In this document: in pieces, positions 14,731 through 52,729 of the stretch | How the letters are laid out: every line of letters begins with the position of its first letter | Position numbering within the stretch: position 1 is the stretch's first letter | Source of the DNA: Protoeuglena noctilucae | Taxonomy: Eukaryota | Length of the DNA: 64,000 nucleotides | Reading direction: 5' to 3' | Assembly: GCA_958009085.1 (NCBI GenBank) | Contig: OY253688.1 | Span: 1 to 64,000, forward strand | Notes under the pieces: model-generated | What the model was told of the DNA's origin: nothing | Databases searched by the model: none | What the model saw: the letters and a program-made list of their open reading frames with translations, nothing else | Made by a program: the position numbers and the translations under genes

Positions 14731-17700
14731 TCACGACATGAGCTTGGCGCAGAACTGCGCGGCACTCCGCTCCCTCAGCCCCAGCAGCGCCGGTCGTGTC
14801 GCCATGGCAAGTGCCGCCATCACTGCCCTGCGCTTCTCTAGGGGATTCTGCGTCAATGCTCGGGACAGCTCGGCGCTGAGAGGGGCGAGGGACTGGTGCT
14901 GCGCCAGCCAGGCGGGTTCAGCCGGGGGGGGTGCCTGGGCAGTCGGGGCAGGGCACGCGTTGGGGGGAGCATCGTTGTTGGCAGCGACGCTTGCAGATGC
15001 CAATCCATTTGCTTCTGTAATCGCTGCCCCTTTCGCTTCTATGCCCGCAACTCCGCTTGCATTCCCACTCGCTCCCCCCCTCGCTTGCACATGGAATGCG
15101 AACCCGTACGTGTCGTGTGCCGCGCGTACCGCCATGGCATCCCCTGCTTTCACTGGTGTCTCGTGGACGAACTGCAATGCCTGGTGCCATGTGGAGCCAT
15201 GAGATGAGAAGGGGGAGGTGCGGAGGACTTGGGTGTCGTCTGAGATGGGGGAGAGGTGGGGGAGTCGGTGATAGAGGGGAGTGGCTGGCAAGGGGGAGAG
15301 TGGGGAGAGCAGAGCAGACGGGCACATCTGAGGCAGGATGGCAGGAGAGGATGGCGACAGTGCGGGGTGCGACATGGTCCCACTCTTGGCCGCGATATGC
15401 AACCCTGGCATGCGCACATTCAAACTGCCGCCTCTCACCCAGGTGCAGGTCGAACCAGAACGCGACTGCGTTGCAGGTGCCATCTGCGTTGATTCGGAGT
15501 CGCAGCGAGGCCGACCACGGCTGCAGGTCTACGTGGTAAAAGTCAAAGGACGTGACGGGCACGGGGGGGCCCAACGCGCGCCAGCCGCGCATGTGGGCCA
15601 GGTCGATCTCCTCGTAGTCTGTGAGAGAAGGAGAGATGGGGGAACTGTATAGTATATATACCGTATATACGCCCCTATAGATTGGAGAGGGCGAGTGTCG
15701 ATCACCATGCCATCTGTACCCACACCCTCCCTCCTCACCTGTCCCCCACCTGTGTGAATGCAGACCCCATCTGCACTCCACTCCATCCACCATCACCTGG
15801 CCTCCACCATTATCAACTAACACCCCATCTGCCACTCCTCACCTGGCCTCCACCAGTGTCAAATAAACACCCCATCTGCACCCACTCCACTCCATCTACC
15901 ATCACCTGGCCTCCACCAGTGTGTGTTGAGCTCCGCCGCGTCCATCCCCGCCACCTCCCCCACCCGCATCTCGACCGGCATGCAGAACACCTGCGCCCCG
16001 CAGGGCACCATGGCCGCGCCCGGCTGCAGCAGCTCCGCGCGTGCGTGTGCCAGGGCGTGCAGGGCACCCTCCCCGATGAGACCGCAGTCGAAGATCTCAA
16101 AGACACACACGTCCGCGCGACGGTCTGGGGGTGAGTGTGTGAGAAAAGGTGAAAAGGTAAGCGATGAGCCAGTCATGCATGCATGGCTATGTGTTGACCA
16201 GGCACAGCACGTGCACCGTCATTGCATGCCACCCAGTCATGCTCACCCATGCACATGCGCCATCGCACCCACCCTCATCGCATACCCCCACACACACCTG
16301 CACATGCACCGTAATCGCATGCCACCACTCACTCACCCATGTCCGGTGCGGTGCCGTCCGGTCTCTCCCTGGCCAGCACCCTCCTCACGTCCCGGTGCAG
16401 CATCGTGACGCGACTGGCGTGCCCGTTGCGGCACACGCACTCCTCCCCCACCTCGCACATCGCCCGGCTGACCTCGCACCCCACCACGCGGTCCGCGCCC
16501 GCACGCGCCGCCATCATCGACAGAATGCCACTGCCGGCACCTGGGGGGGGTGTCAACGAAGCGACACTGTTATCTTGGGTAAGACTACCAAAGACTACTT
16601 AGCACATAGACTCATTTGACACAACACTCATGCACCACCGCCACTGCACCCGCACCGTCCCATCAGTCAGCCAGCCATGACGCCATTGCTGCCCTCCCCA
16701 TGCATCACATCTCATGCCATCCCTGTCTCTCCTCTCCCTCACCGATGTCCAGCACGTGCAGCGGCTGCCCCTCTGGCAGTGACTGTTTTGCCAGAGCCAC
16801 GGCACGTCGTATGGCTCGGTCGTAGGCGGAGTTGCGCCGATCGTCGCTGAGCATCGCGAAGTGCCAACGGGGGACGTAGGCGTGGTGGGGGCGGGGGAGG
16901 TGGGGGGTTGGCATGTCTATGCGCATGCAGAGGTGAGTGGCCGACTGACGCACGCTGCAGGTGAGATGGGGGGGTAAGGGAGGTGAGCAGGGACGTGCAG
17001 GTAGCTCCCTGCTGGGTGGGTGATAGGCATGACATGCGAGGGGTGGAGTGTTGTCTAATGTAGCAGGTCGATTGCTGGCGCAACAGATGAGGATGCTTGG
17101 CACGACCATAGCTATCAGTAACCGTGACACAGCCACATTCCTTATCACAAACCCGCATCGTCCTCACCGTATCGGCACCGCCTCCCCCTCACGCACATCC
17201 GTCAGGTCCGCCCAGCACATGCCGGGTCCCACGTGTGACAGCACAGGCATGGGGGTGTCAGTGGGGGGTTCCTGAATGCCGATAGTAGATGAGTCCCACG
17301 ACCGCACCCACACGCCCTCGTGGATCTGAGGGGGGAGAGACGGGGGCAGGCGGGAGTGGGGCAGGCGACACGTGGCGGAGATAGCGATGAGGGGTAGTGT
17401 ATATATGGTAGACTGAGATGTCATACGAGTCATGCATCATGTGACAAGCACAGCTACGGTGCATGTGTGCATCACTCTCCCTCACCTCTGCCTCCCACCA
17501 CAGCACGATGCCGTTCACCACCCCCGATGCGACCGCCACTGCGTCCACCACTCGGTCCACCTCCCAGGCACCAACCCCGGCGAAGGAAGCGGCAATGACT
17601 GGGCCGGGGGAGACAGCAGGTGCGGCGAGACTGCCACTCCCATCCCCTGCCTTTGCACCATCCACAGATGCACCCTCGCCACCCTCGCTCTCTGCACTCG

Positions 17701-20488
17701 CATGTACCACACTCGCTGCACTCACTGCCCCCACCGCCGCCTCCACCACCGCCCCCCACGCGTCTGCCCTCCCCTGCAGGTCCAAGTCTATGACATCGAA
17801 TGCCGCAGACATGGCCGTGGCCTTGACTGCATCTGTGTCAAATGCCTCAATGCCTGGGTACCACCGGAATGCGGCATCCATGGGGGAGAGGTCGAAGCCA
17901 GACACGGTGCCTGGGGATGGGTGAGGAGAGACGGGGATGTGAGACGTGAGCGGTGTCACCATCTCAGAGCGGGGTGGGTTGCGGTGCGAGGTTGCACTCT
18001 GAGCAAGTGTGCGTGCGTGTGGGCGTGCGCGTGTGCGTGCGTGTATGAATAAGTATGTAATTTAGTGTCCCTAGCATGTGCACGTTCGCTGTCTCTCACC
18101 CGTGACGCTGCGCACCATGGCCCCCCTCACGCGCACCCTCAGCGGCATGACCCTCGCCCCCGTCTCCACCAGATGCCTCGCCGCGAAGTCCAGATGAGGC
18201 AAGATGCCGCGACCCAACACGGTGTGGTCCAGGCAACCCAGGCAAAGCACCTCGCCCTTCTGCATACGATTGGGGGTGGGGGGGGTGTATGGGAAGTAAG
18301 TGTTGGAACTGGGGGTGGACAACTCGAGCAGCGGAGAGGAGATGCGTCGTGTCGTTTTCTAAGGCTTGACTAGATCGCAATGGATGGGCAGGGCGTGGCA
18401 TCGACACTGCATCACCCACCCCATCATGTCAACCCTCACCTCTCGCAGCACTGCCTCAGTCAAACTCTCCCCTGCCCTGCTGCCCTTCTGGTTCCCAATG
18501 CCACTGCTGCTCGACCCCCAGTCCCCCCTCGCATGCGGCGGCAGATCCGTGACAGCTGGCGGTGTCTGCCCAGCCACAAACGCACCCCACAGCGGGCGAG
18601 GCATCAACTCCACATGCGTGGCCGTGTCGGGGTTGGCACCCAGGAACTGCTTGGACATACTGGTTGAGGAAAGGAGGGGGATGAGGTTAGTGTTTGGTAG
18701 TAAGCAGGTGCAGCACGACCATCATTCAAGCACTGCGAACTCCATGCCAAGCATCTGTGCACCCTCTCGCACATCGCAGGTCACAAGCTTGCTGCGACAC
18801 TTGCGCACCGCACATATGTTTCTAAAAGGTGCGACCCTCATCGTATCGCCCTCACCGGTACAGGCTCCGTGAGTCGAGGAACGCCGCGGCCCTCCTCGCC
18901 CCTCCCTTGGCCGCCAGCATCGCCGTCAGCCCCGCACCCCCCTCCACGCACAGCACATGCGCACCCGGCTGCTCAGTTAATGCCGCATGCATGCCTCTCT
19001 CCCACGCACCCACCCACGCATCGTCACGGAGCTCAGACTGCAGGGGTGGGGCGGCATCCACGCGCGGTGGGCTGGTGATAGCAATGCAAGGGCAGAGTGT
19101 TAAAAACGACTGGCACAGTAATTGCAGCTGCGTCTCGTGTCACATGCGTTGTCTGCCTGTCTGTGCTCCCCTCACCAGCACAGCCCTTCCTTCATCCGCC
19201 CCCTCACCCACCCACTGCTCTCCACTCCCCATCCCTCCCAGTGCATCCCGCATCCCCCGCTCTCCCTCACCAGCGCATCCCTGGGATCTTCCAGCTCCGA
19301 CAGAGCCATGAGGTATCTTCTCAGCATCGGCGCCATGGGCATCGCCATCACACGCGCCACATCAACATCCACGCCGCTCTCTCTGCTGTCGTCCACCCAC
19401 GTCCCCCGCCACTCCCAGTCCTCGTATTCCCAGGGTGGGGCAGACATGGATTGCTTCCACTGCTGCAGCTCCGCCTGGCGGTGGTCGTGGGACCGTGCGC
19501 CACGCAGCCGCATCGACAGGTGCTTGCGGCGCACCCGGCGGGACGCGCACTCGCGGCGACGGTGAAGATCTAAAGACTTTGTGGGAGAGAGAGATGGGGA
19601 AGGGGTATGTTCGATTGGTGAATGGTGTTGCCACTCTCCATGTCAATGTGAGGAATGAGGGCTGGAGCAACTCACCTTGACAGGCCCTCACGTCCAGCCA
19701 GCCCCTCCCTCATTTCGCGTCCCTCACCTTCACTGCCGCATCCAGCCCCTCCCTCATGTCCCGGCTGTCAGGTGTCAGGGCCAGTCCCTGCTCAAATGCC
19801 TCTGCCGCCGCCTGCCACTGGCACAGGCCCAGCAGAGCCACGCCCTTGCTGCGATGGACGGAGAGGGATGGGCAGTGAGGGAGAGGTGCGGGATGCGACT
19901 CACATTCTCAGCAGTGCTTTCCTCCCGAACTCTGCCACCTCTCTCTCTCCCCCATCTCACTCTCACCGATAGTGTCGTTGGAGTACCCCTTTCCCTCTCT
20001 ATGTCTACTTCTCTCTCCCCTCTCTCACCGGTAGTGTCCCTTGCCGTACCCTTCTCCCGCTCTCTCTCTACTTCTCTCATCTCCCCATCTCACCGGTAGT
20101 GTCCCTTGGCATATCCTGGGTCCGCCCTGGTCGCCTCCTCCGCGTCACCCAGCGCCTCGCCCAGGCGACCCGTCTTGATCAAGGCAGCGGCGCGGTTCGA
20201 AAGAAGCACCGCGTCGCCGGGGAACGCCGCCAGCGCCTGGGTGTAGAGCTGCGGGCACGAACACACCACGCTCGCCAAGGTGAGCGGAGCGGTGGCGACG
20301 CTGGCAGCGACGGTCGCGCGGACGCGGCGACGAGCCTTGCAGCCCCGCACCTCCGCTGCTCGTTCGTATTTCTTGGCTTGGAATGCCTCGTTTCCCGCCC
20401 TCTTCGCGGCCTGCGCGGCCTGGGCAAGCGCCTCCTTCGGGATGCCCGCCGCGGTCGCGGAAGGCTCCTCCCGCCCTGCGCCGTTCAT
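14731..20488 (-). CDS. TPR + tandem protein arginine methyltransferase (PRMT7/PRMT9-like; 13 exons)
   Basis: N-terminal TPRs (GNEAFQAKKYERAAELYTQAL, LLSNRAAALIK, YAKGHYRKGVAL). C-terminal module WHFAMLSDDRRNSAY, VLDIGAGSGILSMMAARAG, EIFDCGLIGEG, NAVAFWFDL. A degenerate module lies in between. Confidence 0.85.
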
Positions 20489-21034: not shown

Positions 21035-24000
21035 ATGTGGGCCCTGGGCTCGCGGGAGAACAAGGACCAGGAGCTTAACGACCTCCTTTCTCAGCTGGCC
21101 GCGGTGCAAAAGCAAGAGCCCGCTTCTCAGCTCAACGAGAGGTGCGAGGGCGCGTGTGTTGCTTTACAGGCTCTGGTTGGACGCGATGGTGCCCGGTCCT
21201 CTACCGATGCGTCGTGTGTAACTGTGAGTGTCGTTTGCTGTCTCCGGCGTGCCTGGAACGCTCGTGGCGAGTCACTGCAACTCCACCTAAACGCAGGGTG
21301 GCCGTGGAGATCGTTTTGAAACTCCAATCGCAAGGCGCGTTCGGCTCGGACGGTCTCATCAATACCATAGGTGACCCTTGCGTAACCGCGGAGGCGCTTG
21401 ACACGTGCATGCGCGCAGAGGGCACGGCAAGCGGGATGAACATGGCTTTTACGCCCGCGCATCGCCCCGCTCGCAGATGGCCGGGAGTATCTGACTCGCT
21501 CACACCTCCGCAAGGAGCTTGCGCAGCTGCTGGAGTCCTCCGGGGGCCGCCTGACGCTCTCGGACGCGGCAAACGCGCTGCGCGTCCACGCTTTGCACCT
21601 CCGTGCCGCTGCGGAGGACATCGCCGACGTCCGCGGCGCCGACGCCCTCGCTGCGGCGGTATCGAATGCGCATTCGGACACCCCCGCGCCCTTCTCGGTG
21701 GCACTCGTGGGCGGGGAGCTGCTCTCGCGGGCGTACGTGGAGGGAACGGTCGCATCCACCCTGGCCGCGCAGCTGGGTTGCTCCGGTCGTGTCCCCGTCG
21801 CTGCGCTTGCCCGCGAGCTGTCCCTGCCGTCTGACGTGGTGCGCCCCGTCCTGGCCGCCTGCGCCCCTCGCCTCTCCCCGCCCGCGCGCCTCATCCGCGG
21901 CCACGCCTACACTGATGCTCACCTGCTGCAGCTGCGGGGGGCGGCGAGGGAGCGGCTGCGGGCGGCGAGGGAGCCAGTGACGCTGGCGGACCTGGCGACG
22001 GAGCTGGCCGGGGATGGGGAGCTGGATGGCGAGGTGGTGCGGGAGGCAGTGGCAGAGATGGTGGGGAGCGGGGAAGTGCCGGGGAGCCTGACAGGTGGGT
22101 GATGGACTATTATGAAGAGTTATATATGTGAATTGAATGAACGTGGTTGTTAATCAAGAGCGTTGCAGTGTGCCTGGCAGCCCGGGGCGGTGACGCGAAA
22201 GCGCGTGGCAGTGTGTGGTGACGTGGCTTCGCCCATTCTGCCGCAGCGGGTGGTTCCCGCTTCGAGCCATCGTCTCACCGGGAGACCCTCCTGGCCCAGC
22301 TGGCCTCGTCCCTGCGCGCGACTGGCGTGGTGACGTTCAAAGAGGCCAAGGCACGGGGGGTGGGGAGAGGAGCAGCGGCGTTGGTGGATGCGCTGGGGGA
22401 CGCGGCGGTGGGGGCGGTGGCTCTGCCGACGCTGCTGGTGGGGAGGGAGGCGGTGGAAGCAGCCAGGGTGAGGGGGGTGGGGTGGGATGAGGGAGGGAGG
22501 GAGTGAGTGAATGAGTGAGAGAGTGAGTGAGTGTGGGAGTGAGTGAGTGGTTGACAGAGTGGGTGAGGGAGAGTGCTGTCGGTAGAAGTGTTTCTTTGCA
22601 TGGGTGACCCACTAGTGTGACGGCATCAATCATATATAGTCACTAGCTACAGCCTTCTGTTCATTCACCCCCCCTCATCTCTCATCTCTCCCCATCTCCC
22701 CAGGCCCGCGTGTCTGAGGCGGTGGCTCTCGAGTCATGGGTGGACATGGCCACGGTGCTGCCAGCCGCCTTCACCGCCCCCGACATCCGGGCACTGCTGG
22801 CGCACCTGGGTCAGACGGGCACGGCGCTGTCGCTGGGGGTGGCAGGGGGGCAGGGGAGGTGGGGGGACGCGGAGGGGGCAGCGGTGGTGGCAGACACGTG
22901 TGCGGGTGAGAGAGATGGGTGGATATGGGGTGGTGGCAGACACGTGTGCGCGTGAGAGAGAGGTGTTAGTAGATGTGGGGTGGTGGCAACAGATGGGTGC
23001 TTAATAGTAAGCATGCGTGTCATCCCTCGCACCCACCTCTCCCTCTCTGGTTCTGCACTCTTCACCCACACATGTTGTCCACTCCTACACCCCACTTCCT
23101 CCCCCCGCAGTCAGCCACGTGTTTTTGAATCAAGCATTGGACCGCCTGGAGTCATCCGCACGAGCAGAGGCGGCATCGCAGTTGCGCAAGGGAAGCAACA
23201 ACAACAACAACAGGGGCCATGCACAAGGAAAGGGCGGGGGTGGGCGGCGGGGTGGCACGGATGGTTTCCAATCACAATCGCAGTCACAGCCACAATTGCA
23301 GTCAATGTCCGTGCCTGACGCGGCGTGGGTGTCTTCGCGTCTGTCGTCGATGTTCCGTGACTTGGAGGGGGCGGGGGCGGACGGGGGACTGGTGGAGGGA
23401 GTGGCGGAGATGATGGTGGGGGAGGTGAGGGAGGGAGTGGGGTGTAGGAGTGGACAACATGTGTGGGTGAAGAGTGCAGAACCAGAGAGGGAGAGGTGGG
23501 TGCGAGGGATGAGAGATGCCTGTGTGTACGTATTCGAGTACGGGTGATGCGCCATCAGTTGCGTGAGTCACTGTTGGGTCCACGGAACGAAACAAGTCGG
23601 GAGAACTTGTCTTCATATCACAGCATGTCTCTCTCTCCCCATTCATTTCCAGGTCCGTTCCTGTTTCCTGGATACGATCGCCACTCTGCGTGAGAGGGAG
23701 GCGCAGTCAAGAGACGCGGCCCGGCACGGCATCGCGGAAGTGGCGGCGGCGGCATACCAGGAAGCATGGATGGTGAGTGATGTGGAGGGGGAGCGGGAAG
23801 GGTATGGTATGTAGTACTATGTATGGTAAGTGACCACACTCTGCCTCGCATGCGCAGGAGTGGCATCCCGGTCACTGCCACTCCCCCACTCCCCCATTCA
23901 CCCACTCCCTCACTCCTTCCCCCTTTCAGATGGAGGAGGGCGCGTCCGTCTGTGCCACCTCCCTCCACCTCGACACCCCCACGCTGGCAATGGTGCGGGC

Positions 24001-25354
24001 GGAGGCAGGGTCTGCGAGGGGTGCGGTGCTGCTGTCACTGCTGAGGGCGGCGGACTTCTTGGATGGGCAGCCGGGGGCGGGGGACGTGGAGAGCGTGCGA
24101 GAGTGGTTGGAGCAGGTGAGGGTGCGAGTGGCATGGAGACGGTCATGATAATGATGATGATGCCATCACATGCACGAGCATGCGCATCTATCTACCGCCT
24201 AATCATCTCATCCATCGCCATCCACCCCTATCACCCACTGTAACACTCATCGCACCTTCTCATCCCTCTGCAGAGTGCGGGCCCTGCCACGGTCGACCTC
24301 TCCTCCGACCGCTCCCCCCCACCCCCGCCCCTGGCCTCCCTGCTGTCGCGGCGGGGCAGCCCCCGCGCCCAGGCAGCACTCCAAGCACTGCAGGAGAGAC
24401 TGGACGCGGGGGGACTGACGCGGCCGTGGCTGGACGACACGGCCACGCTGGCACGGTGAGGGGTGGCAGTCGGGGTGGCCACATGTGACGCGACTGGTGG
24501 ATATGGAAGGGTGGAGTTGAGCATGGAGTTTAGCATGTGTTGCGACTGATGGGCCGACTGAAGCACCGAGCACTAACATCGCTCGTCACCCTCGCAACCC
24601 ATCCTTGTTTCCGCTTTGTTCTCATCACTCTACTGCAACTCATGCCACTCACACCCATCCCCATCCCCCACCCCCTCAGGTCCCACTGCGGCATGCCACT
24701 CACATGTATCCCCTGTCCCCATCTCTCTGCCATGTGCCACTCACATGCAACCCATCTCCCATCCCCCCACCCACCCCCTCTCAGGTCCCACTGCGGCATG
24801 CCCCTGTCGCCCCCGCCTGCCCCCCTGGCCGCCTCCGCCACTGCCGCCCTCTGCGCCCACTTGACCATTGCTTTGCGGTCCGTGGATGTGGTGGGGTCCT
24901 TCGCGTGCGCACTGCCGCTGGCACTCGCGTCGCGGTGGGGCGCGTGCGTGCGTGTGCCGCTGCGTGCGGTGCCTGGGGTGGTCAAGGCGATGCGGGCAGC
25001 GATGACGGAACAGGAGGGGCAGCTGCTGGCGGAGGTGAGGGAGGGGTGTGATGGGGGATGACTGTACTACAGTGGGTGTGACCCAGGGCAGCTGATGGGC
25101 ATGCTTGCGCGTTCGCCTCTCATCTCCCCCAGCACTGGCACAAGTGTGATACAGTGGATGTGCTCAAATGTAGTATGCTTAGTAATTGAGCATAATCGAT
25201 TTCGTCCCCCCCCCCCCAGCACGCTTCCAACGTGGTGGATGTGCTGAAGGGCGCGGCTTGGGCGCAGGAGAGGGGAGCCGAGACGCTGAAGAGACTGGTG
25301 GAGATGCTGTGCAAGGATGGGGATGGGGATGGAGATAAGGATGCGCAGGGGTAG
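21035..25354 (+). CDS. UFL1: E3 UFM1-protein ligase 1 (11 exons)
   Basis: N-terminus ELNDLLSQLAAVQ...QLNERVAVEIVLKL...LINTIDGREYLTRSHLRKEL...GGRLTLSD matches the UFL1 signature; phase-consistent GT-AG introns. Confidence 0.85.
23020..23512. repeat. Perfect 77-bp inverted repeat (arms 23020-23096 and 23436-23512) flanking UFL1 exon 23111-23424
   Basis: Arm 2 is the exact reverse complement of arm 1 (TCATCCCTCGCACCCACC...CTACACCCCACT), checked base by base. Confidence 0.95.
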
Positions 25355-25556
25355 AGGAATGCGCTGTGCGACGGCGGTGACCCATGCAGCGTGGGTGAGA
25401 GCGAGGGTGCTAGGGGTTGCAAAGAGCATCGACAGACTCTAGACATCGCTGCTGTTGCTGTCGCATGCTTTGAAGCGTGTTGTTCGTTGCGTCGCACAAA
25501 GGTGCGTGTGATTGAATGTCCTAGTAATCATCGGCACGGTCTGTCACGGCCTGGCG

Positions 25557-26794
25557 TCACGGGTCCACGCGCACGAGCTTGATGTCGAACTGCAGCGTCT
25601 TGTCAATCATGTTGTTCTTGCCCTCTACCACGAACGACAGGGCCCTGCGGGGATGACACACGACACGCTTGCAAATGCGACCGTGCTGTCACGACGTCTC
25701 ATATAACCCCATGCAACTCCCCATGTACACAATACCACACACCCATACACACCCCACAATGCCTCACCTGTCCCCCGAGAATGTCATCTACCCCCTGTAT
25801 ACACCCACCCGCACCCACAACCACCCCACCCCACACATCCCCACCTCTCCCCCGAGAATGTCGTCGGCTTGGGCCCCCACGTCCGGAAGTCGCCATCCGG
25901 GTACGACAGCTCCCAGGGGACGATCACGCGGCGGATGCCACCCTCCTGGGGACGGAGAATGCAATGCTTGAGCGTCGCAAGCAGGCACAGAGGCTATGCC
26001 TGGCAAGTGCTGACAGCCTCACTGCCTCCAGTAACCCACCCCTGCCACCCTTGAACAATATCAACAACACCCCCCCCACCCCCACGCGCCCCTCGCCTTC
26101 ATCCCCTCCACTGCCTCCTGGAACCCAGCGATGACGCGGTCCTCCCCCAATCGAAACCGATAGTAGTCCTTGTCATCATCGTTAAACGACGACCCCTTCG
26201 TCTTGTTCTTCGCCTCAAAGGGACGACCGTAGTACCCGATCGTCACGCCCGTCCAGTCCACCACGCACGTGTCACCGCGGCGCGGCTGGCGGCCGGTGCC
26301 TTCCCGGAAATCGTAGTACTGCAGCCCCGAGGGCGTCTCGGTGAAGTCCGCGAAACGCATGCGCTCTTTGCCGTAGTCCTTCCCCTTCAGCGCCTCCATT
26401 GACGACTCGCGTGTCGCGTGCGCGCTCTCGGGCCACGCGAGCGCTGCGGGGGCGGGCGACGGCGGGTGGATTGCGGGCACGCCTTGCCCGCGGGCGTGCG
26501 TGCGGCGTGTGGGGCCGCCTCCGCCCTCGACAGCCGCGAATGACGTATATTGCTACAAGGGTTGCGAATCTGACCTCCAGCAGCTTCGCAGGCCCTTCTC
26601 CGGCGTGTGAGGCCGCTTCCACACGCACCTGGGACGCAGGCCGCAACGCCTGCGCCTAGCAGCGACGCTACGTCGCGTCGAGACGGCAGCGCATGCAGGC
26701 GGTGCCGAAATGCATCGAGACGCCTCCTTGACTGCGGGCTAGTCCCGATCGCTCCCCCGGCCCGCTGTGCGGGGCAGGCAGCGAGACCACGCAT
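25557..26794 (-). CDS. FKBP19: Thylakoid-lumen FKBP-type PPIase, FKBP19-like
   Basis: GKDYGKERMRFADFTETPSGLQY, VVDWTGVTIGYYGRPFEAKNKTKG, GPKPTTFSGERAL; twin-Arg SRRD in the presequence. Start approximate. Confidence 0.88.
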
Positions 26795-35014: not shown

Positions 35015-38921
<3,907 letters not shown>

Positions 38922-39140
38922 ATGGTAACAACGCTAATTGGATGTTTGAATGTGGAATGCGCAAGTGCGGCGTTGAAGACGGAGAGCGTAACTGTACCCA
39001 CGCATGCGTTGCATGTGTGACTGATGAGTGGGGCTCTGCAAACACGCTTCTACGCGACTTGCCGATGGTTGGTAGCACAGCTGATCGGTTTCAACCAGCA
39101 AGCGATGCCACACGGGCGTGGCACATGTGATGTCACATTC

Positions 39141-42100
39141 TCACTCATCATCGCCCCCCTCCCCCATCTCCGCCAGTTGCCTCTCTGCCCAGTCCATCCC
39201 CCACTCAATCAAACACCGGCAGCCCCACATGTACACGCGAGCGAAACGCACCTCCGCAACCACCCCCGCACCCACCCCGTCGCTTGCCACACCGCAACGC
39301 AAGACACCGTCCCTGTCACCACCACCCTTGTCCCCCTTATCTCCAGAGTGCCCTACCAATGCATCCTTACCATGCACATCGTCGTTGTTGTTATCACCGA
39401 TGTCTCTATGTGGGTCTTCTGATGATTTGAATGGCTCTCTGAGTGCCATGCATACCGTGCCCATGGCACGCAGGGCGGTTGCGGTGGGGGGGGAGTGGAA
39501 GAGGGATGCGGGGGGCTGGGGGGGAGAGACAGGGAGTGGGGGTATTAGGTGAAATGATGACAGAGGGAGTGGGATTGTTAGGTGGTGTCGGGTGAGTGAG
39601 TGGGAAAGACAGGGCAGGCTGTGGGGTAGACAAGGGTTGAAAGACTTGTAACCCCCTCCACATTCAACGTCTCACCATTTCCTCCAGTTCCCCCAACCCC
39701 TCTCGATCCTCCACCATCACTCGCAGTGCCATCAGCAAGCGGCGGGGGGGCACGCCCATGCACAGCTGATGGTCGAGCTGGGGGGGATGGGGGAGAGCGA
39801 TAATGGTGATGATACTTATTATCATGATGAAAGTCATGATGACGTTTGAAATAACAGCATCGACATCAGCAGTAGCAACATGGCAATGGGTCAGTCATCG
39901 TTGTTCATTGCCAATGACACCCCCCATCGCCCTCACCCCCACGCCCCATCTCTCCAGCAGTGCCCTCTTCCTCTCCTCCAATCCGTCTTCTGGCATATCC
40001 AAAGTCACATTGACGAAGTCGTGGGGGTTGCGGGGGATGGCGAAACCGTAAAAGAGGAGGAGCTTGTGGTTGGGGCGCACGCTGGGGGTGGAAGGGGGGT
40101 GAGATTGGTTGAGTGGGTGATTATTACAATTGTTATGGAGTTGTATGTAATTGCTGAGATGATGGCGAGAGCGGGAGCTTGCGGTTGGGGCGCATGCTGA
40201 ATGGGGGGAGAGGATAAGGGGGCTGTATGGATAAATGAGTCAATAGATGAAAGGCAAGGAGACATGTGTAGCGCATCTTAGGTGATAAACACCTGCTCCC
40301 CCTCTCATCACCCCATACTCACAGAACAGTCAGCAACCACGCTCAGTAGAAACACTAAGCAAGCACCCTATCTTATACCCCACACCCCCCCCCCCCCCCT
40401 CCCCCCCCTCACCCATACGACAGAAACGTCTGCTCCCCCCCCCTCTCAACACCCACAAATGCTCTCCCCCCCCATCTCTCACCCGTACGACAGAAACACC
40501 TGCTCCCCCCTCGCCGCCTTTCTGAACGCTGGCATCTCCAGTCTCTTTGTATTCGCGTCCACTCTGCCATACCGACTGACGTGGGGCCATGGGGAGTGGT
40601 TCATCAGCTGAGCCACGGGGAGGAGGCACGTGGTGCAGGTGCCGTCTGGATATTCCACGTCAAAGGGGTAGGAGTACTGGGAGTGGGGGAGAGGGGTGGG
40701 TGTTTAGTGTGATAGATAACACTGTTCTCGACTTCTGTTAGTAACTGCGACGGAGTGAGATTGCACTGCCATCGCGCCCAAGTGACTGCCAGTCACTGTC
40801 ACACTTCCCCATCAATACCACCCTAACCCTCTCCTCGTCCAATCACAACCACCCCATTCATCCACAACCCCCCCAACCCCCCCCCCCCCCCCCCCATCCC
40901 TCACCCACAGCCCCGCCATCCACTCAAAGTTCTCCCACGTGTACACATCCGCAGGGAACAGGCCGGGGATGGCCTCGCACAGTGCAGGAAAGAGAGCGTC
41001 GTACTGCGATCGAAGCGACTCTTGCAGCGACGCCACTTCCTCTGACAGGGGGGACCCTGCCAGAACGTCGCGTGCCGCTTGGCTCAGGGTGGCGCCGGTG
41101 CTGAAGTGGGAGGGGAGGGCGTCCCAACACTCTCTGGATGGGGGGTGAGGGGTGAGGGGTGAGGGTGGGAGTGGGAGTGGGAGTGGGAGTGGGAGTGGGA
41201 GTGGGAGTGACTGGGAGTGGGGCTGGCAGAGTGGGAGTGTGCAGCTTGAGCGATCGTGCTCTCGATAGCAACCGTCCGCCTCGTGCTTCGCGCTCTCCCT
41301 CGCCTGGACGCCGACCCCGGGTCCGCCCGGTCCGCCATGCACCACAGCACGGTCTTGGTGTCGTCATCCAAAGTGGGTATCCCCGACAGCACGGTGCCGA
41401 GGGGCGTACCGGCGGACTGGCGGAGGCTGATGAGGCGGTCCTGGGGGATGGACACGACGGTGTCGCCGGGACTGAGAGAGATGAGAAAGAAAGGGGAGAG
41501 ATGAGGGGAGGGGGTGAGAAAGTGGGTGTTTGGGTGCTGGTGAGGGCATTGATGCAACGCAACAGGGGTGGCGAGGGAGGGAAGGAGGTGCGCATGGCTT
41601 TCGCTGTCCGCTATGCACCCTCACGTGTTTGGTTATAACGTATAACAACACACATCCACGCAAAGCATGCTCACCGCACGTCCCTCGCAGCCATGGCGCC
41701 CCTCCCCATTCCCTCAAACACCCCCGGCTCGATCGCCCCTTCAATCCCCACCGACGACGCCCAACGCATGAGAGCCGAATCCGTATTAGTAGATTCCGAT
41801 TCTGTACCCTCGCAGCAGCTGCGGCCCAGTCGCCCGTCCCCGTTCACCGCCGCTCCCTGGGCTGCGTAGTTGTCTAGCAAAGCGGTGAGGGGCGGGGGTG
41901 TGTCCACGCCCACGCCCACCACGGCGCGCACCAGCAGGCCCAGCGCGGAACCCTCGTTGCGGGCGTTCTGCGGGACACAAATGCGATCGGAGAATTGGAG
42001 ACAGTCTCATCGATCAACCAGCACAGTGCTGGTGACGGCAGTGAGCGGTGTAGCTTGCCTGTTCTCACCAGGGGTTGGTCGAAGTCGCAGAGAAGAGTGC

Positions 42101-42986: not shown

Positions 42987-45847
42987 ATGGAGTCCCTCTC
43001 CCTCCACGCCCGCGGCTTCCAGGCCCCGGCGCGGGCCAGCGTGCGCAGGTGGGGTTTCGCGCGCCCAGGCCCACGCTCGCTGGCTTTGACGATTAAAACG
43101 CCGTGATCCGCTTTGTCTAGGCAACAAAGAAGCGATCGGCACTCTGCGCAGCCCCAAACGGTGCTCCCGCGCGACGCCCGGCCTGCTTTGCCCGGGGTCG
43201 GTTAGCCCGGCAGCGCGCCGCAGCGTCCCCGCCCCCTCCGCGCCCCCGCAGTCCCGCGCGCATGTCATATATGATCTCCGCAGCCGGCGCCGCACCGGCA
43301 TGGCGCTCCTCGGCGACCCTGCGCTCGGCCCGCGCCGTGGCACGCCCCTCCCCTCGCAACGCGGGCATTGCCGCAGCCGCTGCTTCGGGCGACGCCAGCG
43401 CAGCGAAGGATTCGGGTGACATGAACGAAAGGGACAAGGCGCTTCAGGCGAGAGACGTTAGCGGGGTGTCATCCTGCGCACTCATGCCATGAGTTGCCGG
43501 CGCGATGTGGGGCGATGCACCTGACCCTGCCAAAGGCTTTCTCTTCACCCCTTCCACCCCAGAGCGTGCTTCGGGACTTGAACAAGAAATTCGGTGCCAA
43601 TTCCGTGGTGTTCCTGGGTGCCAAAGAGGCCGCGGATGTGGAGAGGACGCCGTCGGGGTCGTTGACGCTCGACCTTGCTTTGGGTGGGGGATACCCGGTG
43701 GGGAGAATCGTGGAGATATTCGGGCCAGGTGAATGCGTGTGATGGGGTAGGATGGGTTGATTGGAATGAAGTAGCTGGCTCCGTTACCAAGTCGCTCCCT
43801 CACGAAAATTATCACAATTCCTCACCCCTCACCCAGTCCTCCGGCAAGACCACCCTGGCCGTCCACGCCATTGCCGAGGTGCATGCTTAGTCACTATCAC
43901 CACTATCATTACCATCGCTTATCACAATCCATCAACTCTATAACCCCAGAGTCCTCCGGCAAGACCACCCTGGCCGTCCACGCCATCGCCGAGGTGCAGC
44001 GCCGTGGTGGCCGCGCGGCCTTCATCGACGCGGAGCATTCCCTGGACGCCACCTACGCCGCGTCTCTGGGAGTGGACCTGGATTCTCTGCTCGTGCATCA
44101 GCCGGAGGCGGGCGAGGACGCGCTGGAGGTGGCCGACACGCTCATGCGCAGCCGGGCGGTCGACATGATCGTGGTGGACTCGGGTGAGGGAGGAGAGCGG
44201 GTGTTTCAGATGGTGATAGTGATTGGAACAGGATTGGAGTGGTGGGCGTGATCGTGATTGACTCGGGTGAGAGAAGGGCCCCCCTCTGCCCTGGTCCCCC
44301 ATTCGCAACCCACGCCCATGTCACCACCACCACACATGTAACAACTGTGTAACACCATCACGCCAACGCAACTCCCACCCTATATCTCCCCCCAGTGTCC
44401 GCGCTCGTCCCCCGCTCCGAGCTCGAGGGCCAAGTGGGCGCGCTGCAGGTGGGGGGGCAGGCGCGACTCATGTCGGGCGCGATGCGCAAGCTCGCCCAGT
44501 CCGCCAGCCGCAGCCGCTGCACGCTCGTCTTCTTAAACCAGCTCCGGCACAAGGTGGGCGTGCTGTACGGCAATCCCGAGACCACCAGCGGGGGGCAGGC
44601 GCTCAAGTACTACGCGTCCGTGCGCATCGATGTGCGCGCCAAGGGGCAGCTGGTCGAGGTGAGGGGTGGGATGGGTGGGGGTGGTGTCTATATCAGTGTA
44701 TATATATGCCAGGTACTATGGTATACACAAACACCTTCCTGTCTCACTCCCCCTCTCATTCAGCTGTTTTCACTGTTACTTCTACTAACACTTCAACTAA
44801 CCCTAACACTGCTAGTGCTTCCCCAATCATCCCAGCGAGGCCATCGGCATGCATGTCGCCCCTCCCCCTTTCTCACATCTGTGCTGTCCATGTCAATAGA
44901 CACTGTTTCCGTCAATTGCAGGGCAGCGAGGCCATCGGCATGCATGTGACCCTCCACTTGCAACCGTTACAGTAAACAATGCTAGTGCTCTCCCTTACCC
45001 CCAGGGCAGCGAGGCCATCGGCATGCGTGTGCTTGCGAAAGTGAAGAAGAACAAGACAGCGCCCCCTTTTAGGGAGGCGGGGTTCGATCTGCTGTTCAAG
45101 CAGGGCATCGACAGCGTGGGGTGCGTGATCGACGCGGCAGAGGTGAGTGTATATGGATGTGTGTGTGTGTGTGTGTGTGTGTGATGTGCTGAGAGAGTGT
45201 CAGTGTGGGTGTGGGTGTGTAGCAATGTGGCTGCCTGCTCCACTCACATCACCGACTCCTTCTTTCTAATACACCAACTACCCCTCAGTAGTACTATCTC
45301 ATATCCACCCCGATCACCCCCCCCCCCAGAACCTGGGCGTGATGGTGAGGCGCGGCGCCTTCTACTATTACGGGTCACGCAACCTGGCGCAGGGGCGTGC
45401 CAAGACGATCGAGGTGCTGAAGGGGGATGCGGGGCTGAGGGGGCAGGTGGAGGAGGAGGTGCGGGCCAAGATGAGGGGGGTCGTCAGCGCGGGTGAGGGG
45501 ATGGGGGTGTGTGTGATGAGGGGGGTGGGGTGGGGTGTGTTGAGGGGGGTCGTCAGCGCGGGTGAGAGAAGTGGGGTGGGGTGTGTGATGAGGGGGGTCG
45601 TCAGCGCGGGTGAGAGTGGCGGGGTTGCATGGATGGCTCGCATGCCACTTTGGTATCCTCGACTGCTCGATCGACTGTGCCCATGTCATTTCAGTATTAT
45701 CGATTGCTCCATCGACTGTTTATCGCAGTGAATGCGAACCTGGGTGCGTCATCGGAGGCGGTGGCGGAGGATGCGCTGGTGGGGCTGGCGGAGGACATGG
45801 AGAGGGGGAGGGGGGAGTACGAGGAGTGGGGGGAGGTGAGTGATTGA
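42987..45847 (+). CDS. recA: Organelle-targeted RecA recombinase
   Basis: [34 protein letters not shown] (Walker A), [62 protein letters not shown]. Ser/Arg/Ala-rich presequence; start could also be 42852 or 43262. Confidence 0.93.
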
Positions 45848-46296
45848 GATGGGGATGGGAGATGATGAGGATGGGATTAAGAGAGGGAGTTGGTGTTATC
45901 GTGTCGCGCTGCTGCTTGCGCTTGAAACAACCCGCTTTTCGTCGTTGCCTTTCTCAGGACCCCGACAACGTCGCGGAGGAGAAGAGCGGATTCGCGCCCT
46001 GACCGCACCATATACAACCATCCATACCATCCATGACGGCGCATCATGGATAGAAGGAAGGGGCGATTGCTGAGCCTTGATCATCACTCACATCACGACG
46101 GCACAGTGGGGAGGGAGGGGTTACTTGCCGAGCCTGGTGTTAATGCATGCGTTGGGACATCGGCATAAGCTGCTAACCATCGACTGGCCACTTGAATCGC
46201 GCGCTATCTCACGCGCCACCATACCTATGCAACGACCGGCAAGCACATCACACAGGCAGACCCCTAACGCATACAGCCCAGGTACGCATGTGGTCG

Positions 46297-47326: not shown

Positions 47327-47817
47327 CCGCCGCGGCCGTCGCTCAAGCGCCGCGGAGCGGCATATGCGTCACGGGGCCGACCAGCCTCAGGCGCGATGCG
47401 GCGCTGGCCGGGGCGGGCGCTGGGCGTCAAACGGTGGGCGACAGCTGGGTGTTGAAGATGCGAGGCGTCGTTTTGGGGGTGTCAAAGCCACTCGCGACGT
47501 CACTGCTGGCTATGTTACAATCTTGGCCAGCGCGGGATGCAGACTGGAGCCTCGCTCTGCACGCGGCGCTCCGACCTGCTCCGGCAGCACGCTAGGGCAC
47601 TGACTGGCCGCGGGTCCGTCCAGCTCTGGCCCTGCCGTGGCTCGCGCACGCCAGTCCGGTGTTGACGTCGGCGAGACTGAGGCCCTTTCATCGCCCTGTG
47701 CGCATCCGCGGCGTCTGTGCCTGCAGCTTTGGTTCGGACCCGTGGCTGCCCCCTTCCTGGGCCCTGCCGTCCCGCCTGAGGTCTCCTGGTCGGTGACGTG
47801 TGATTCTTGGCAATGAG

Positions 47818-50800
47818 ATGGCGGCCGTAGCCGCGGCGGTAGCCCCGAAGGGCCCCGGGGCCGAGGATGCGGGCGCGGAGGACGCCCTGCACCACGCCCG
47901 GGACGCATCTTCCGCCGGGGAGTCTGTCGACATCGACGTCGAGGAACTCGACATCCTCGCCGGGGGTATGCCCGACCTCTCGTCCCTCACCAAGGACCTG
48001 CAGAGGTGCGCCGCGCCCGGGGCGGTCCGTGGCCCCGCGATCGCCCGCTGCTCCGCCCGCTGCCCCCCGCTGTCGCGCGCGCGATGGTTCTTCGCATTAT
48101 CCTTAGGTCTGCGTGCCGGAGATGCTCTCCGGAACGCTTGACGCGCCGCGCGTCCTCACGCGAGCTGCGTTTATGCATTGGCGGTCCCGTGTTGCGCAGA
48201 TGCGCCAAGCACGAGGTCGTCCGGGCCATCCTGGACCAGGGTGTGGACGTGAGGCAGTCATCTCGGGACATCTACTCGAAGATGGTCGAGGCGGAGATGC
48301 TGTCGGTCAAGGACTACGTCGAGGTGAGGAATGGGCGTTGGGTTGATGTGGATGAGGAGTGGCGTGTGATGTGATGTCGCCATGTGACTGTGTGATACGT
48401 CGTATATTCAGCGGTACTGCATGCGCTGGCGTGCAGTGTATCACCCAGTGTGTTGTCCATAATGACATTCATCCCAGCTCGCAACCCTTCACACATCACC
48501 ACCCTGCCCCGTCCTTCCCCTTCCCCCCAGGAGGCCTCTGCCCTGCAGGACCTGCACGACCGCATTCTGGCATGCGACGGCGTGCTGGCGGAGGTGGAGG
48601 TGGTGCTGCAGCGATTCCAGAGCGACCTGGGGAGCATCAGCGGGCAGATACGCGCCCTGCAGGAGCAGAGCGCCAGTTTGAGGTGAGGGGGAGAGAGCTG
48701 GGTTGTTGTTATGAACGGTGTGTGCTTAGTGTATTCCCTATCCTCACATCCCCCTTGCACCCATCTAAACCATCGTCGCTCGTCGCCACCCATTCCTTGT
48801 ACTCTCATGTCCCCCACCCCTCCCCCCTTCCCCTCCCCGCAGCACTCGCCTGGACAACCGTCGCGAGGCAGGCAAGCGCCTGGGGTCGGTGCTGGAGAGC
48901 CTGGTGGTGCCGCCGGGGCTGGTGCAGAACGTGACGAGGGCAGAGGTGGACGAGGCGTATGTAACGCACCTGGTGAGATGGGGGGTCGTAGATTCGAATG
49001 TGATGCACGTTGTCATGCAACCCCACTGCCACCCCACTGCCACCCCACTGCCACCCCACTGCCACCCCACTGCCACCCCACTGCCACCCCTCACTGCCAC
49101 CCTCCCAGCCACCCCCACTGCCACCCCCACTGCCACCCCCACTGCCGCCCTTAACACCGCCCCCACTGCCACCCCCACTGCCACCCTCCCAGCCACTCAC
49201 AGCCACCCCCACCACCCCCCCACCCCTCCCCCCCCAACGCAGTCCCAGCTCAGCGCCAAGCTCCACGCCCTGTCATCCCGCAACCTCCCCCCCGACGCCG
49301 CCGCGCGCCGCGACGTGGAGCCGGAGCTCAACCGCCTGCGACTGTCCGCCGTGCACCGCGTGAGGGCATACCTGCTCAAGGAGTTTCAGCAGCTGGGGCA
49401 CGGGAGGACCAACGTGCCCGTCCTGCAGAACACCAAGCTGCTGCCGCTCAAGCAGCTGATGCGGTTCGTGGTGAGTGAGGGAAAGGGGTGACGGTGTGTG
49501 GGGTAGCTGAATGCGGGTTGTGGTGAGTGAGGGATGAGGGTTGACGGCGTGAGGTAGCTGACCGGATCCGCTTCATTACTCCTTCCCCACCATTCCCCTT
49601 ATTTATACACTCCCAGTCTGACCACGGCCCCGAGTGCCGCGACGAGCTCCGCCAGTCGTACGTCTCCGTGCGCGGCCGCACCCTCACCCGCGACATGGGG
49701 CAGCTGCTGGCGGGGATTGAACGCATTCGCGCGCCCCCTGCCACCAAGGCGGACCTCGTGGGGTCATCGGGGGGGATCATGCCGGTGCTCAACACGCTAG
49801 GCACGCAGGGGCTGGGTGAGTAGTTGATGAGGGGTGGGGGTGGAGTGTGGGTGTGGGGATGGGTGGGGTGGGTGAGTGTGGGTATGGGGACAGGGTGGGT
49901 GTGGGAGCAGTGACAGCGGCCTGGGTCGCCCTGACATTGTATTCATATCCACCTCAACCCCGATTTATCGCCCCATATCACCCCCAGGCAATCTGTTCCC
50001 GATTGGCGGTCGTCATGCCGAGTCTCAGAAGGCGGGGGTCTTCCGTGCCGGCTCTCGTCTCAAGGACCTCACTGCATTGGAGGAGATGCCGCTGGTGCCG
50101 TTCGTGGAGATACGGTGAGGGATTGGTTGTTACTGTGTACTTAGGACAATGTATTATGAATATACTGTTAAGATATCAGGGCTGCTGATGGGGTTGCGGT
50201 GGGCGACATTAAACAGACAGGCACACGACCTCGACATGGGCCGGTAAATGCAAATAGGATGCAATGCTATTTGTAATTTAATGCTCATAATTATATCTCC
50301 CCCTCATCTCCCCCCCAGTGAGGGCCGCCAGCACCCAGTGGAGGCGCTCTTCCGCACAGCAGTGGCGCTGGTGAGGGGCAATGGGGACTGTTGATCAAGA
50401 TATAGTAACAACTCGTTCGATATCACATGTAATGACAGTAAATTACTATAGAACACCATAAAATAATAGTTATATAGTGATCATACAGTGTATGTTACAT
50501 CTCACCCCTTCTACCCTCCCCGTCTCCCCCCCTGTAGCTCTCCGACGCCTGCACCTCCGAGTACCTCTTCTGCCTCATCCATTGTATATTACTTATAGTA
50601 ATATGTAACATATAAATAACCGACTCCACCCCCCCTCTCCTTCAGCTCTCCGACGCCTGCACCTCCGAGTACCTTTTTTGTTTGGAGTTCTTCGGTGACG
50701 CTGACCTGTTCGACCAGGCAGCTGCGGATGCAATTCGTGCGACCGAGGCGTGGGTGCAGCACACGGTGGCCGAGTGCTACGACCTGGTCGGGCTGCTGCT

Positions 50801-52729
50801 CATGGTGCGGGCCAACCTGGGGATGCACATCGCCATGCAGAGGAGAGCTGGTGAGTGCGTGGGGTGGGTGGGTGTGAAGCATGGGGGGTGGTGTGACGTG
50901 AGTTGGGCATGGGATTGGAATGTGTGGCTTGTGATCTTGTCATTTATGACTACTGTCATCCTAACTGTGATCTAAACACATAGATCTGCTTCATCATACT
51001 ATCACTGTCCTCACCCACTTCCCCCCCAGTCCCTTGCCTGGACGGCCTCTTCGACCGCATCAACCTGCTGCTGTGGCCGCGCGTCAAGGCGGTGCTGGCA
51101 GAGCACGTCCAGTCCCTCTCCCCTGCGCGCGACAACGCCCTCGCGCAGCGGGACCCCTCGTCGCACCCCGTGACCAGAAGAGTGGCGGAACTGGTGGCGT
51201 CGCTGTATCAGCTGTGCGCGGACGTGGGGGGGGTAGACCAGGGCAGGATCGCGGGGGAGGGGCAGATGGAGGTGAGGGGGGGGGTGGTGGTGGTGGGGGG
51301 GGGTTGAGGGAGAGGGGCAGATGGAGGTGAGGGGGGGTGGGTGAGGTGATGGTGTGTGGGTGAGAGTGGGTGAGAGGGGGGTGGGTGACAGAGAGAGGGT
51401 CAGGTCGTCTTGCCGCATTCCATCACAACAGAAACAACACACGACCCCTCTATCTCACTCAGCTGACATCAATACCAATGCTTTCTCTCCCTCTCTTTCC
51501 CCCCCATAGATGGCCGCCCAGCAGCTGGAGAGTGCGTATTTGGGATTCCTCGCCCGTCACCAGAAGCGCCTGTCCCCCTCGGACGGGGCCACCTTCCGCG
51601 TCAACAACCTCGACACGTTCACGTCGGTGCTGAGGTGATTATTGTGGGGTGGTTGGTTGGTGGTTGATCAGTGATGGTGTTTGTGAGGGATGGGTGCAGT
51701 CGGCACCTCCGTATGTGCAAAGAAGTGGGCACGGACAAGGACCAGCTGGGATCCATAACAAACATACTGGTACTGATACACTCATTCACTCTCCCCCATC
51801 TCATCATTCACAGAGAAGTGGGCACGGACAAGGACCAGCTGGGCTTCGGCCACTCGGGTCGCCAGGCGCTGCAGCGATTGCAGAGACTCCAGGACGACGC
51901 GGTGTCCGACCTGGGACTGTTCGCGCTGCGCACGCACTTTGGGGCGCTCGTGTCGTTCGCCGAGAACTACGGCCTGCTGAGGGCGCAGGGGCAGGGGCAG
52001 GGGCGGAGGGCGCATGCGGGTGCGTGGGGGGTGGGGGTGGGGTGGATGGGGTTAGGAGTGGTTGGCTGTGTTCTGGTGTGTGCATGCATGCGGGTGCGTG
52101 GGGAGTTAGGGGTGGGTTGGATGGGGTCTGCTTGGATATGTGGGTGGGTGGGGAGGAACGTGCTGCAGTTGCGGGGTGCAACTGCTTCCCATGACATTAC
52201 ATCGTCATGACACCGGTCGCGATCGCTTTACATAGCAACAACCCCATCCATTCAGCTCACATATCTCGCATCCCCCGCTGTTGCAGGTGCCGAGTCCCAC
52301 GACGCGCCAACTAGCGATGCGGCCGAGGGCGCCCCTTCCGACCCCAACGCCGCGGACGGCCCCCAGACCGACGGCGCTCCCGACGACTTCAAGGGTGCCA
52401 GAAACGACGACGAGGGCCGCGTGGTGGGCCGTGCGGTGCCCGTGGATGAAGCGGAGAGGGTGGCACGCGCATTCGAAGCCACCTGGGAGCGACAGGTGCA
52501 CGACTTGCACTCGGAGCTCATCCGGCGCGTCGGGAACCTGCTTACCGGGCAGGCGGTGCTGAAGGTGTGCATGACGCAGCTGGTGGTCTTCTACCGGGCG
52601 TTTCTGGCGGCGCTGGGGGCGTCGGGTCCGAAAGGGCAGGAGCTGGCGGGGAGGGCGGTCAAGGTGGCGAGCATTCTGTACGAGATCAAGAGGCTCGAGA
52701 AGCCGGGGGCGGGGCGGGGGGGGCGATGA
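47818..52729 (+). CDS. VPS52: GARP complex subunit VPS52 (13 exons)
   Basis: VRAILDQGVDVRQ, LHDRILACDGVLAEVEVVLQRFQSDLGSISGQIRALQEQS, DVEPELNRLR, TNVPVLQ, DACTSEYLFCLEFF, LDGLFDRINLLLWPR, TQLVVFYRAF, ILYEIKR. Confidence 0.92.
49021..49195. repeat. Intronic minisatellite of CCCCACTGCCA-like 11-12-mers
   Basis: About six near-perfect units followed by degenerate ones, in the 3' half of a VPS52 intron. Confidence 0.85.

Follow-up and report, generated by a model that had tools for sequence, protein, structure and literature searches.

A dense cluster of junction-spanning tandem duplications with decoy splice sites in a probably subtelomeric stretch of Protoeuglena noctilucae DNA

Introduction

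Several human genes contain minisatellites whose first repeat unit lies across an exon-intron boundary; one report (PMC1557585) names F7 intervening sequence (IVS) 7 with a 37-bp unit, CBS IVS13, IFI6 (6-16), LMNB2 and PDGF intron 4. As described there for F7, the pseudo-sites of the array are functional, only the most upstream one is used, and this preference was ascribed to 5'-to-3' scanning. The present work concerns a dense group of related structures in the alga Protoeuglena noctilucae, i.e. in positions 1 to 64,000 (forward strand) of contig OY253688.1 of assembly GCA_958009085.1 (the window in the following), where short tandem duplications across splice junctions have left copies of the splice site and of a piece of adjacent exon inside the intron (termed decoys here). 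The original prediction, made from the sequence alone, had stated that no description of such an arrangement was known; for single genes this was wrong in view of the human cases.

The structures of the window resemble the F7 IVS7 type (PMC1557585) in that head-to-tail units repeat the donor inside the intron and in that the outermost unit spans the functional junction, which applies to 20 loci here. Likewise, the pseudo-sites of F7 are identical or nearly so and potentially functional, and all 13 decoy donors of the window are consensus-like GT sites; the exclusive use of the most upstream site in F7, LMNB2 and PDGF has its counterpart in the outer site found in the RNA contigs of this study. 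In contrast, the F7 type as described there comprises 5-25 near-identical copies in isolated genes, whereas 2-4 degenerate copies per locus were present here, acceptors were hit about as often as donors (8 versus 12 loci), and approximately 16% of the window introns were concerned.

Internal gene duplications were reportedly discussed by Gao and Lynch in 2009 as a source of introns. In the Rogers model (PMC3265369), an AGGT segment of an exon is duplicated in tandem and an intron is gained thereby; it shares with the present loci the short intragenic tandem duplication and the unchanged peptide, the redundant copy being removed by the spliceosome. It differs from them in that the two breakpoints lie in exon sequence and give rise to a new intron one period long, whereas an existing intron was extended here by a unit that includes old intron sequence; indeed, none of the present loci was an intron of one period with ends copying the flanking exons. 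For human segmental duplications, internal tandem repeats located at exon-intron boundaries have further been described as changing gene structure (PMC2812944); the units, of minisatellite size as in the window (approximately 30 bp and longer), lengthen introns or activate cryptic sites. Those cases came from paralogue comparison and the transcript was often altered, whereas it was unchanged at the loci read in RNA here. A full-text literature search (supplements lying outside its scope) yielded no account of duplications of this type that concerned acceptors or documented their density across a genome. New in the present data are the density, the involvement of acceptors and the strength of the unused sites.

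Results and Discussion

Occurrence of junction-spanning duplications

Junction-spanning duplications were found at 20 loci (12 donors and 8 acceptors, Table 1) in 19 of 122 predicted introns (approximately 16%), with 4 of the 8 introns of the RecA gene affected. They are a real structural feature, consisting of events of a known type that are densely clustered in the single subtelomeric window analysed. All 17 junction sets of the original prediction were recovered at their places by sequence, repeat families and Tandem Repeats Finder (TRF) arrays, with the correction that the positions listed there denote unit starts and not splice sites; the frequency of about one per 7-8 introns given there was too low, and three loci were missing from it (the DegP donor at 7248-7363, the SET acceptor at 40059/40174 and the VPS52 donor at 49459/49511).

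The junctions were placed by RNA joints in the glycerol kinase and RecA genes and elsewhere by a small Viterbi gene finder of our own, which was trained on 14 introns from RNA contig joints and rerun on four sub-regions. Free self-training inflated its output to 500-1000 introns and later iterations fused genes; these were discarded and the first-iteration models retained. The models are approximate, and the one at 51814-52050 probably extends into an intron.

Independent of any annotation, a scan for ungapped direct repeats (offsets of 30-300 nt, score of at least 14) gave 182 matches compared with 1, 2 and 2 in three distant control offset ranges; 47 of the 182 lay outside short-period arrays. 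The comparison of exon ends with the adjacent intron that had been proposed as a check was run within the window, using 22-nt probes across each predicted junction (n = 244; at most 4 mismatches) searched in their own intron: copies were detected for 19 junctions, one of which (52051) is doubtful. These amounted to 23 own-intron matches versus an expectation of 0.007, derived by searching these probes in all remaining introns, where a single match occurred in 4,621,716 positions; the exon parts of DegP 7248-7363 and VPS52 49459/49511 are too short for a 22-nt probe. Local inverted repeats showed no excess (1 near versus 2 in the far control), the local repeats thus being direct only. At 6 loci, TRF arrays with periods of 46-63 consisted of direct units arranged head to tail, and similarity extended over the whole unit in DegP, both PRMT sets, the UFL1 donor and acceptor, WDR26, RecA donor 2 and VPS52 49459.

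Some of the copies listed originally had to be qualified. Of the two SET donor copies, 40408 was borne out, while 40287 is merely a 16-nt exon-internal match without a donor; the exon copy of the VPS52 acceptor decoy at 51719 exists with its AG out of register, and in the RecA acceptor decoys at 43832 and 44833 the copies are present with the AG shifted by small indels.

The window begins with a telomere-type array (positions 1-259, approximately 44 CCCTAA-type hexamers; TRF consensus CCTAAC, 89% matches), so that its start looks like a chromosome end and the whole window would be subtelomeric. Human minisatellites cluster in subtelomeric regions; the density observed may accordingly be a local one, the window being subtelomeric.

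Table 1. Junction-spanning duplications and intronic comparators in the window (positions in window coordinates; periods and units in nt; PWM, position weight matrix score in bits)
Locus	Span (strand)	Functional site	Decoy(s)	Period or unit	Remarks
DegP-like protease donor	7248..7363 (-)	junction 7354/7355, spanned by the last unit	near 7305, 7256	49-nt unit x 2.4	Trypsin Pfam match on neighbouring exon; absent from original prediction
PRMT-like donor set 2	15731..15922 (-)	15905 (first intron base)	15842, 15796, 15738		all decoys GT
PRMT-like donor set 1	19960..20108 (-)	20093	20028	63-nt unit x 2.3	degenerate third copy at ~19962
UFL1 donor	22883..22988 (+)	22906	22952	46-nt unit x 2.2	E3_UFM1_ligase Pfam match
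UFL1 acceptor	24641..24802 (+)	24784 (last intron base)	24679		decoy AG kept, PWM 19.0 vs 17.5 functional; if used, +105 nt, in frame, no stop
FKBP donor	25750..25862 (-)	25844	25767	77	FKBP_C Pfam match
WD40 (WDR26-like) donor	31327..31422 (-)	31395	31348	47-nt unit x 2.0	93% identity
Glycerol kinase acceptor 1	37204..37328 (+)	37303	37223	80	
Glycerol kinase acceptor 2	37896..38057 (+)	38012	37911	101	exon part 42/45 matching
Glycerol kinase donor	38506..38734 (+)	38539	38650, ~38722	111, 72	periods unequal because the first unit carries a (GATGT)n expansion
SET-domain acceptor	40059..40199 (-)	40082	40197	115	shares one 401-nt intron with SET donor set; absent from original prediction
SET-domain donor	40287..40510 (-)	40482	40412	70	
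RecA acceptor 1	43826..43998 (+)	43949	exon copy 43835-43883		copy matches 48/49, AG off by 2 nt
RecA donor 1	44166..44271 (+)	44184	44267		~18 nt exon + GTGAG in common, flanks unrelated
RecA acceptor 2	44828..45031 (+)	45004	~44833, 44921	three copies	~44833: register lost; 44921: AG kept, weak tract, PWM 3.5 vs 14.1 functional
RecA donor 2	45452..45637 (+)	45493	45562, 45610	three copies	if used, +69, +117 nt, in frame, no stop
VPS52 donor	49459..49560 (+)	49471	49523	52-nt unit x 2	exon part 12 nt; absent from original prediction
VPS52 acceptor 1	50516..50680 (+)	50645	50537 (TAG)	108	exon part 29/29; Vps52_C Pfam match
VPS52 donor	51241..51337 (+)	51272	51327	55	PWM equal (14.5)
VPS52 acceptor 2	51721..51843 (+)		30-nt exon-start copy (30/30) in intron, 93 nt upstream		AG not in register; upstream intron without similarity
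Intronic, Kelch-repeat gene	13886..14030 (+)			72-nt unit x 2	87% matches; starts 18 nt after donor
Intronic, PRMT-like gene	16207..16326 (-)			93	direct repeat 16207/16300
Intronic, glycerol kinase	38282..38387 (+)			91	direct repeat 38282/38373
Intronic	45659/45700				others in SET and ANK introns
Counted as intronic, VPS52	52012..52127 (+)			74-75	G-rich direct repeat 52012/52086, at or after predicted donor 52050/52051; counted as intronic because the gene model is doubtful there

Anatomy and strength of the decoys

The claimed local duplication of the splice site together with adjacent exon sequence was supported, the exon piece measuring 9-49 nt within periods of 46-115 nt and 2-4 copies per locus. 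The exon-derived part made up a mean of 0.30 of the period and never more than 0.57; it was identical at 498 of 522 positions in 22 decoys. The intron-derived part was far more diverged (approximately 45-85% identical as judged by eye), with many small indels, and homologous in 6 of the 7 acceptor sets; in RecA donor 1 and VPS52 acceptor 2, a short copy was all that the two places had in common. That the introns are lengthened, as had been proposed, is reflected in a mean of 244 nt for the affected introns versus 165 nt for the rest.

The expectation that alternative sites are left in the introns was likewise supported: all 13 secure decoy donors carry GT, and 7 of them scored at least as high as the functional site (8.5-14.5 bits for decoys versus 8.5-14.7 bits for their functional partners; median of the other introns, 10.4). 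Among the decoy acceptors, 5 of 9 scored within 3.5 bits of the functional site and 4 of 9 had lost register or pyrimidine tract, so that degraded or out-of-register decoys were confined to acceptors (4 of 9 versus 0 of 13 donors; Fisher P approximately 0.017); this contrast fits an upstream decoy acceptor being more dangerous than a downstream decoy donor. Overall, the canonical dinucleotide was retained in register in 20 of 23 decoys, and 17 of 23 would introduce a premature stop if used. A search for branch-point 5-mers upstream of the acceptors revealed no clear consensus.

The duplicated donors were without exception GT (12 of 12), in spite of a 25-40% share of GC donors (30 of 122 predicted, 6 of 15 RNA-supported; binomial P between 0.03 and 0.002). 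Duplications of weak GC donors may not have been tolerated.

Independent DNA and RNA evidence

Contigs from an independent marine metagenome DNA run (X5) matched the window with 0 differences over 37120-40383, 43957-45145, 45514-49049 and 51320-52000, and with 1 difference over 49209-50565. They contain the copies of the three glycerol kinase sets, SET, RecA donor 1, RecA acceptor 2, part of RecA donor 2, VPS52 49459 and VPS52 acceptor 2, and comparison of copy numbers gave the same structure as the window in this one DNA run. The metagenome contigs break only where copies share at least 31 identical nt (near 43864/43957 and 50565), as follows from assembly graphs of short words.

The RNA evidence consisted of assembled metatranscriptome contigs covering 20 kb of the window (the region of 15-32 kb lying outside); contigs of this kind cannot show minor isoforms. 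At all 4 loci that were readable in them, in three metatranscriptome runs (X8, X11 and X12), the outermost site was used. In RecA, the joint 43724>43946 (X8, X11 and X12) bypasses the decoy acceptor near 43832; the joint 44182>44395 uses the first donor and bypasses the decoy at 44267; and the joint 44656>45003 uses the last acceptor and bypasses the decoys at 44833 and 44921 (unit start 44919), the latter two joints again being present in three runs. All three joints, found on one contig per run, resolve to GT..AG introns. In the glycerol kinase gene, loose ends at 37302 (X11, X12) bear the terminal part of the exon that ends at 37044, which places acceptor 1 at the distal copy, and at acceptor 2 the RNA contig is compatible with both copies. 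Among the joints listed here no RNA contig uses a decoy, within the limits of contigs in which minor isoforms are invisible; the proposed skipping of intron-internal sites by the spliceosome is thus supported at the 4 readable loci. The observation that the copy keeping the reading frame is always the outermost one holds as well, as a necessity of the tandem geometry and not as a discovered rule, since only the outer copy adjoins the original sequence (the following sequence for a donor, the preceding sequence for an acceptor).

Origin of the duplications

We consider it probable, with a good measure of reserve, that the junction loci are neutral survivors of ordinary, unaimed short head-to-tail duplications on which selection acted as a filter. 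Such duplications (unit of approximately 45-115 nt, 2-4 copies) would most likely arise from replication slippage or unequal exchange within the alga's strand-skewed introns of low complexity; of the two, slippage is the presumed mutational mechanism. A breakpoint placed between a few and approximately 50 nt into the adjacent exon would bring the splice site into the unit; a tandem duplication always preserves one original exon-intron arrangement at its outer edge, splicing at the outer site would yield the original mRNA, the inner copies would turn into intron and the alleles would survive, presumably as nearly neutral ones. Choice of the outer site may rest on the order of recognition (donors), on disabled decoys (some acceptors) and/or on nonsense-mediated decay of mis-spliced RNA.

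Duplications inside exons would be purged unless they are in frame. Among exonic sequences, tandem arrays show periods of 18, 18 and 21, and one repeat (4137/4257) is spaced by 120 nt, all of these being multiples of 3; the latter (4137-4188 and 4257-4308, 81% identity) encodes two similar heptad-like peptide segments on the plus strand and has the appearance of an exon duplication that kept the frame, in a gene outside the resolved models. Wholly intronic duplications would survive and soon become unrecognisable, both copies drifting under slippage and indel turnover; the decoy exon piece would remain recognisable far longer because its real exon partner is held constant by selection.

A junction-centred duplication process, as claimed in the original prediction, was not established, nor is one needed to account for the data. 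Purely intronic duplications, an equal frequency of which was to speak against such a process, were present at 7-10 loci (including three shorter ones resembling short tandem repeats). The introns are so short that by geometry alone many duplications must cross a junction; an 80-nt unit, for example, could be placed detectably across a junction in 13,742 ways, compared with 12,116 within introns. Under uniform placement with the observed periods, 12.9 junction loci were expected and 20 of 27 observed (P = 0.003); this excess is reduced to P = 0.14 by a twofold and to P = 0.45 by a threefold detectability bias in favour of junction loci, so that the situation named in the original prediction as speaking against a junction-centred process is nearly reached. 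An internal calibration suggests a roughly threefold bias, as the intron-derived part alone is detectable in only approximately 6 of 19 junction loci. Detection is unequal: selection freezes the partner with which the exon part of a decoy is compared, whereas intronic copies both drift and are churned by slippage; BLAST self-alignment with a low-complexity filter recovered mostly exon-bearing repeats.

Several observations weigh against unaimed duplication, and most of them count instead for a mutational hotspot tied to the splice junction or to its flanking G-rich/C-rich tracts (e.g. by replication stalling at structures that the G-rich start and the C-rich end of an intron would form). The uncorrected junction excess is one of them; the placement null behind it rests on annotation from a home-made gene finder and on a single subtelomeric window. 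Six of the 7 whole-unit TRF arrays with a long period (at least 40) touch a junction, with approximately 3 expected (rough P of 0.04-0.09); the exon parts are short and consistently contribute the lesser share of the unit, their mean of 0.30 comparing with 0.5 under uniform breakpoints (z approximately -3); the 12 duplicated donors are all GT in the face of the GC share given above; and the intronic Kelch duplication begins merely 18 nt from a donor. The 16.3 kb of intergenic DNA contain only 1-2 such repeats, and for RecA donor 1 and VPS52 acceptor 2 a simple tandem model predicts homology beyond the short copy, which is lacking. A hotspot is nevertheless the less likely account, although one to be taken seriously: its statistical excess disappears at a two- to threefold detectability bias, and a bias of such size was measured internally; the breakpoints are scattered (exon parts range from 9 to 49 nt and periods from 46 to 115 nt), duplications confined to introns do occur and the sample is small. 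An extended version, according to which boundaries are true duplication hotspots, thousands of introns genome-wide carry intact decoys, introns grow from their edges and a strict outermost-site rule operates independently of site strength, appears rather improbable.

Decoy exons offer a model for a second alternative, in which the copies would be kept for splicing control, binding of U1 or U2AF promoting intron retention or unproductive splicing. In its favour, the exon-plus-splice-site part is approximately 95% identical, versus approximately 45-85% (by eye) for the intron-derived part, the canonical dinucleotide is in register in 20 of 23 decoys and decoy donors score like real ones. The asymmetry in identity is, however, explained by one frozen partner and the fast indel turnover of low-complexity intron, and at approximately 95% identity chance alone would leave a core of 5-6 nt intact; degradation has already set in at 4 of 9 decoy acceptors, and the RNA contigs, which hide minor isoforms, revealed no decoy use among the joints listed. 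Retention for splicing control therefore seems to us a poor prospect.

Introns born by tandem duplication of exonic AGGT segments (the Rogers model), and those created by mobile intron-generating elements, would likewise place duplicated exon sequence within introns, as is seen here. Such an origin is highly improbable: the affected introns (146-401 nt) are much longer than one period (46-115 nt), the decoys carry intron-derived flanks, the units hold old intron sequence and the intron start is unlike the downstream exon. Introners as a source would imply a dispersed family, yet none was seen with one probe match in 4,621,716 positions of other introns, and the repeat families common to several loci are of low complexity only.

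That the copies are an assembly artefact (collapsed or expanded repeats), which the original prediction had itself named as a possible refutation, has next to no probability, being refuted at the covered loci, where X5 DNA contigs carry them with 0-1 differences, and being at odds with RNA contigs that leave out the decoys as intron parts.

Implications for splice-site choice and annotation

If the density were found genome-wide, hundreds to thousands of natural constructs would exist in which identical or near-identical donors or acceptors compete at distances of 46-170 nt, and the choice of the spliceosome between equal sites would become open to statistics instead of single minigenes. Duplication would then also contribute measurably to the growth of introns; in the window, it accounts for approximately 2 kb of 21.7 kb of intron. 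Should both the hotspot and the outermost-site reading prove true, the genome would represent a natural library of competition experiments between duplicated sites. For annotation, the lesson is that splice-site scores alone cannot place such junctions, in a genome where 6 of 15 RNA-supported donors are GC.

Gene content and further features of the window

GC content is high throughout the window (56-73% in 2-kb bins), in which intron-rich genes are densely packed. Over its whole length the gene finder predicted 18 genes with 122 introns (92 GT and 30 GC donors), corresponding to 26.1 kb of exon, 21.7 kb of intron (median 160 nt, mean 178 nt) and 16.3 kb of intergenic DNA. Pfam scans of single exons agreed with the earlier gene names (E3_UFM1_ligase, FKBP_C, WD40, FGGY, RecA and Vps52; SET and methyltransferase weakly) and further matched Trypsin, Kelch and Coatomer_E. 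GC-AG ends, typically GCGAG, were present in 6 of the 15 RNA-supported introns (window 32322-45004), far above the usual GC-AG share of approximately 1%. In Emiliania, 56% of introns are of the GC-AG type (PMC4028052).

Sampled words of the window were found to 62-94% in marine metagenome runs and to 23-40% in marine metatranscriptome runs. The glycerol kinase exon 36652-37044 had its best protein matches in green algae (Chlamydomonas 73-74%, Pyramimonas 66%); no match above 74% was obtained in a large protein collection, from which the proteins of the organism itself thus seem to be absent. In view of these green algal matches, a haptophyte affinity of the Emiliania type, which the frequent GC-AG introns had suggested, was discarded. 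A search with a VPS52 exon yielded nothing, and the metagenome scan with such an exon gave only distant relatives (32-52% identity).

The small proteins of two adjoining predicted genes (54465-55431 and 56039-57005) are nearly identical and have a membrane segment at the C-terminal end; the genes are thus tandem paralogues, the second of which was merged with the downstream gene by the gene finder. The WD40 gene region includes a run of 200 N (30729-30928; gap or masked). A VPS52 intron harbours a C-rich minisatellite (49016-49235; unit of 11-12 nt or 24 nt, approximately 17 units), at which the metagenome contigs showed very high depth and many loose ends. Two poly-C stretches (24-28 nt) are located at 40385-40408 and 40868-40895, both in introns of the SET gene; the metagenome depth of approximately 2200 in the bin of the former presumably reflects low-complexity cross-matching.

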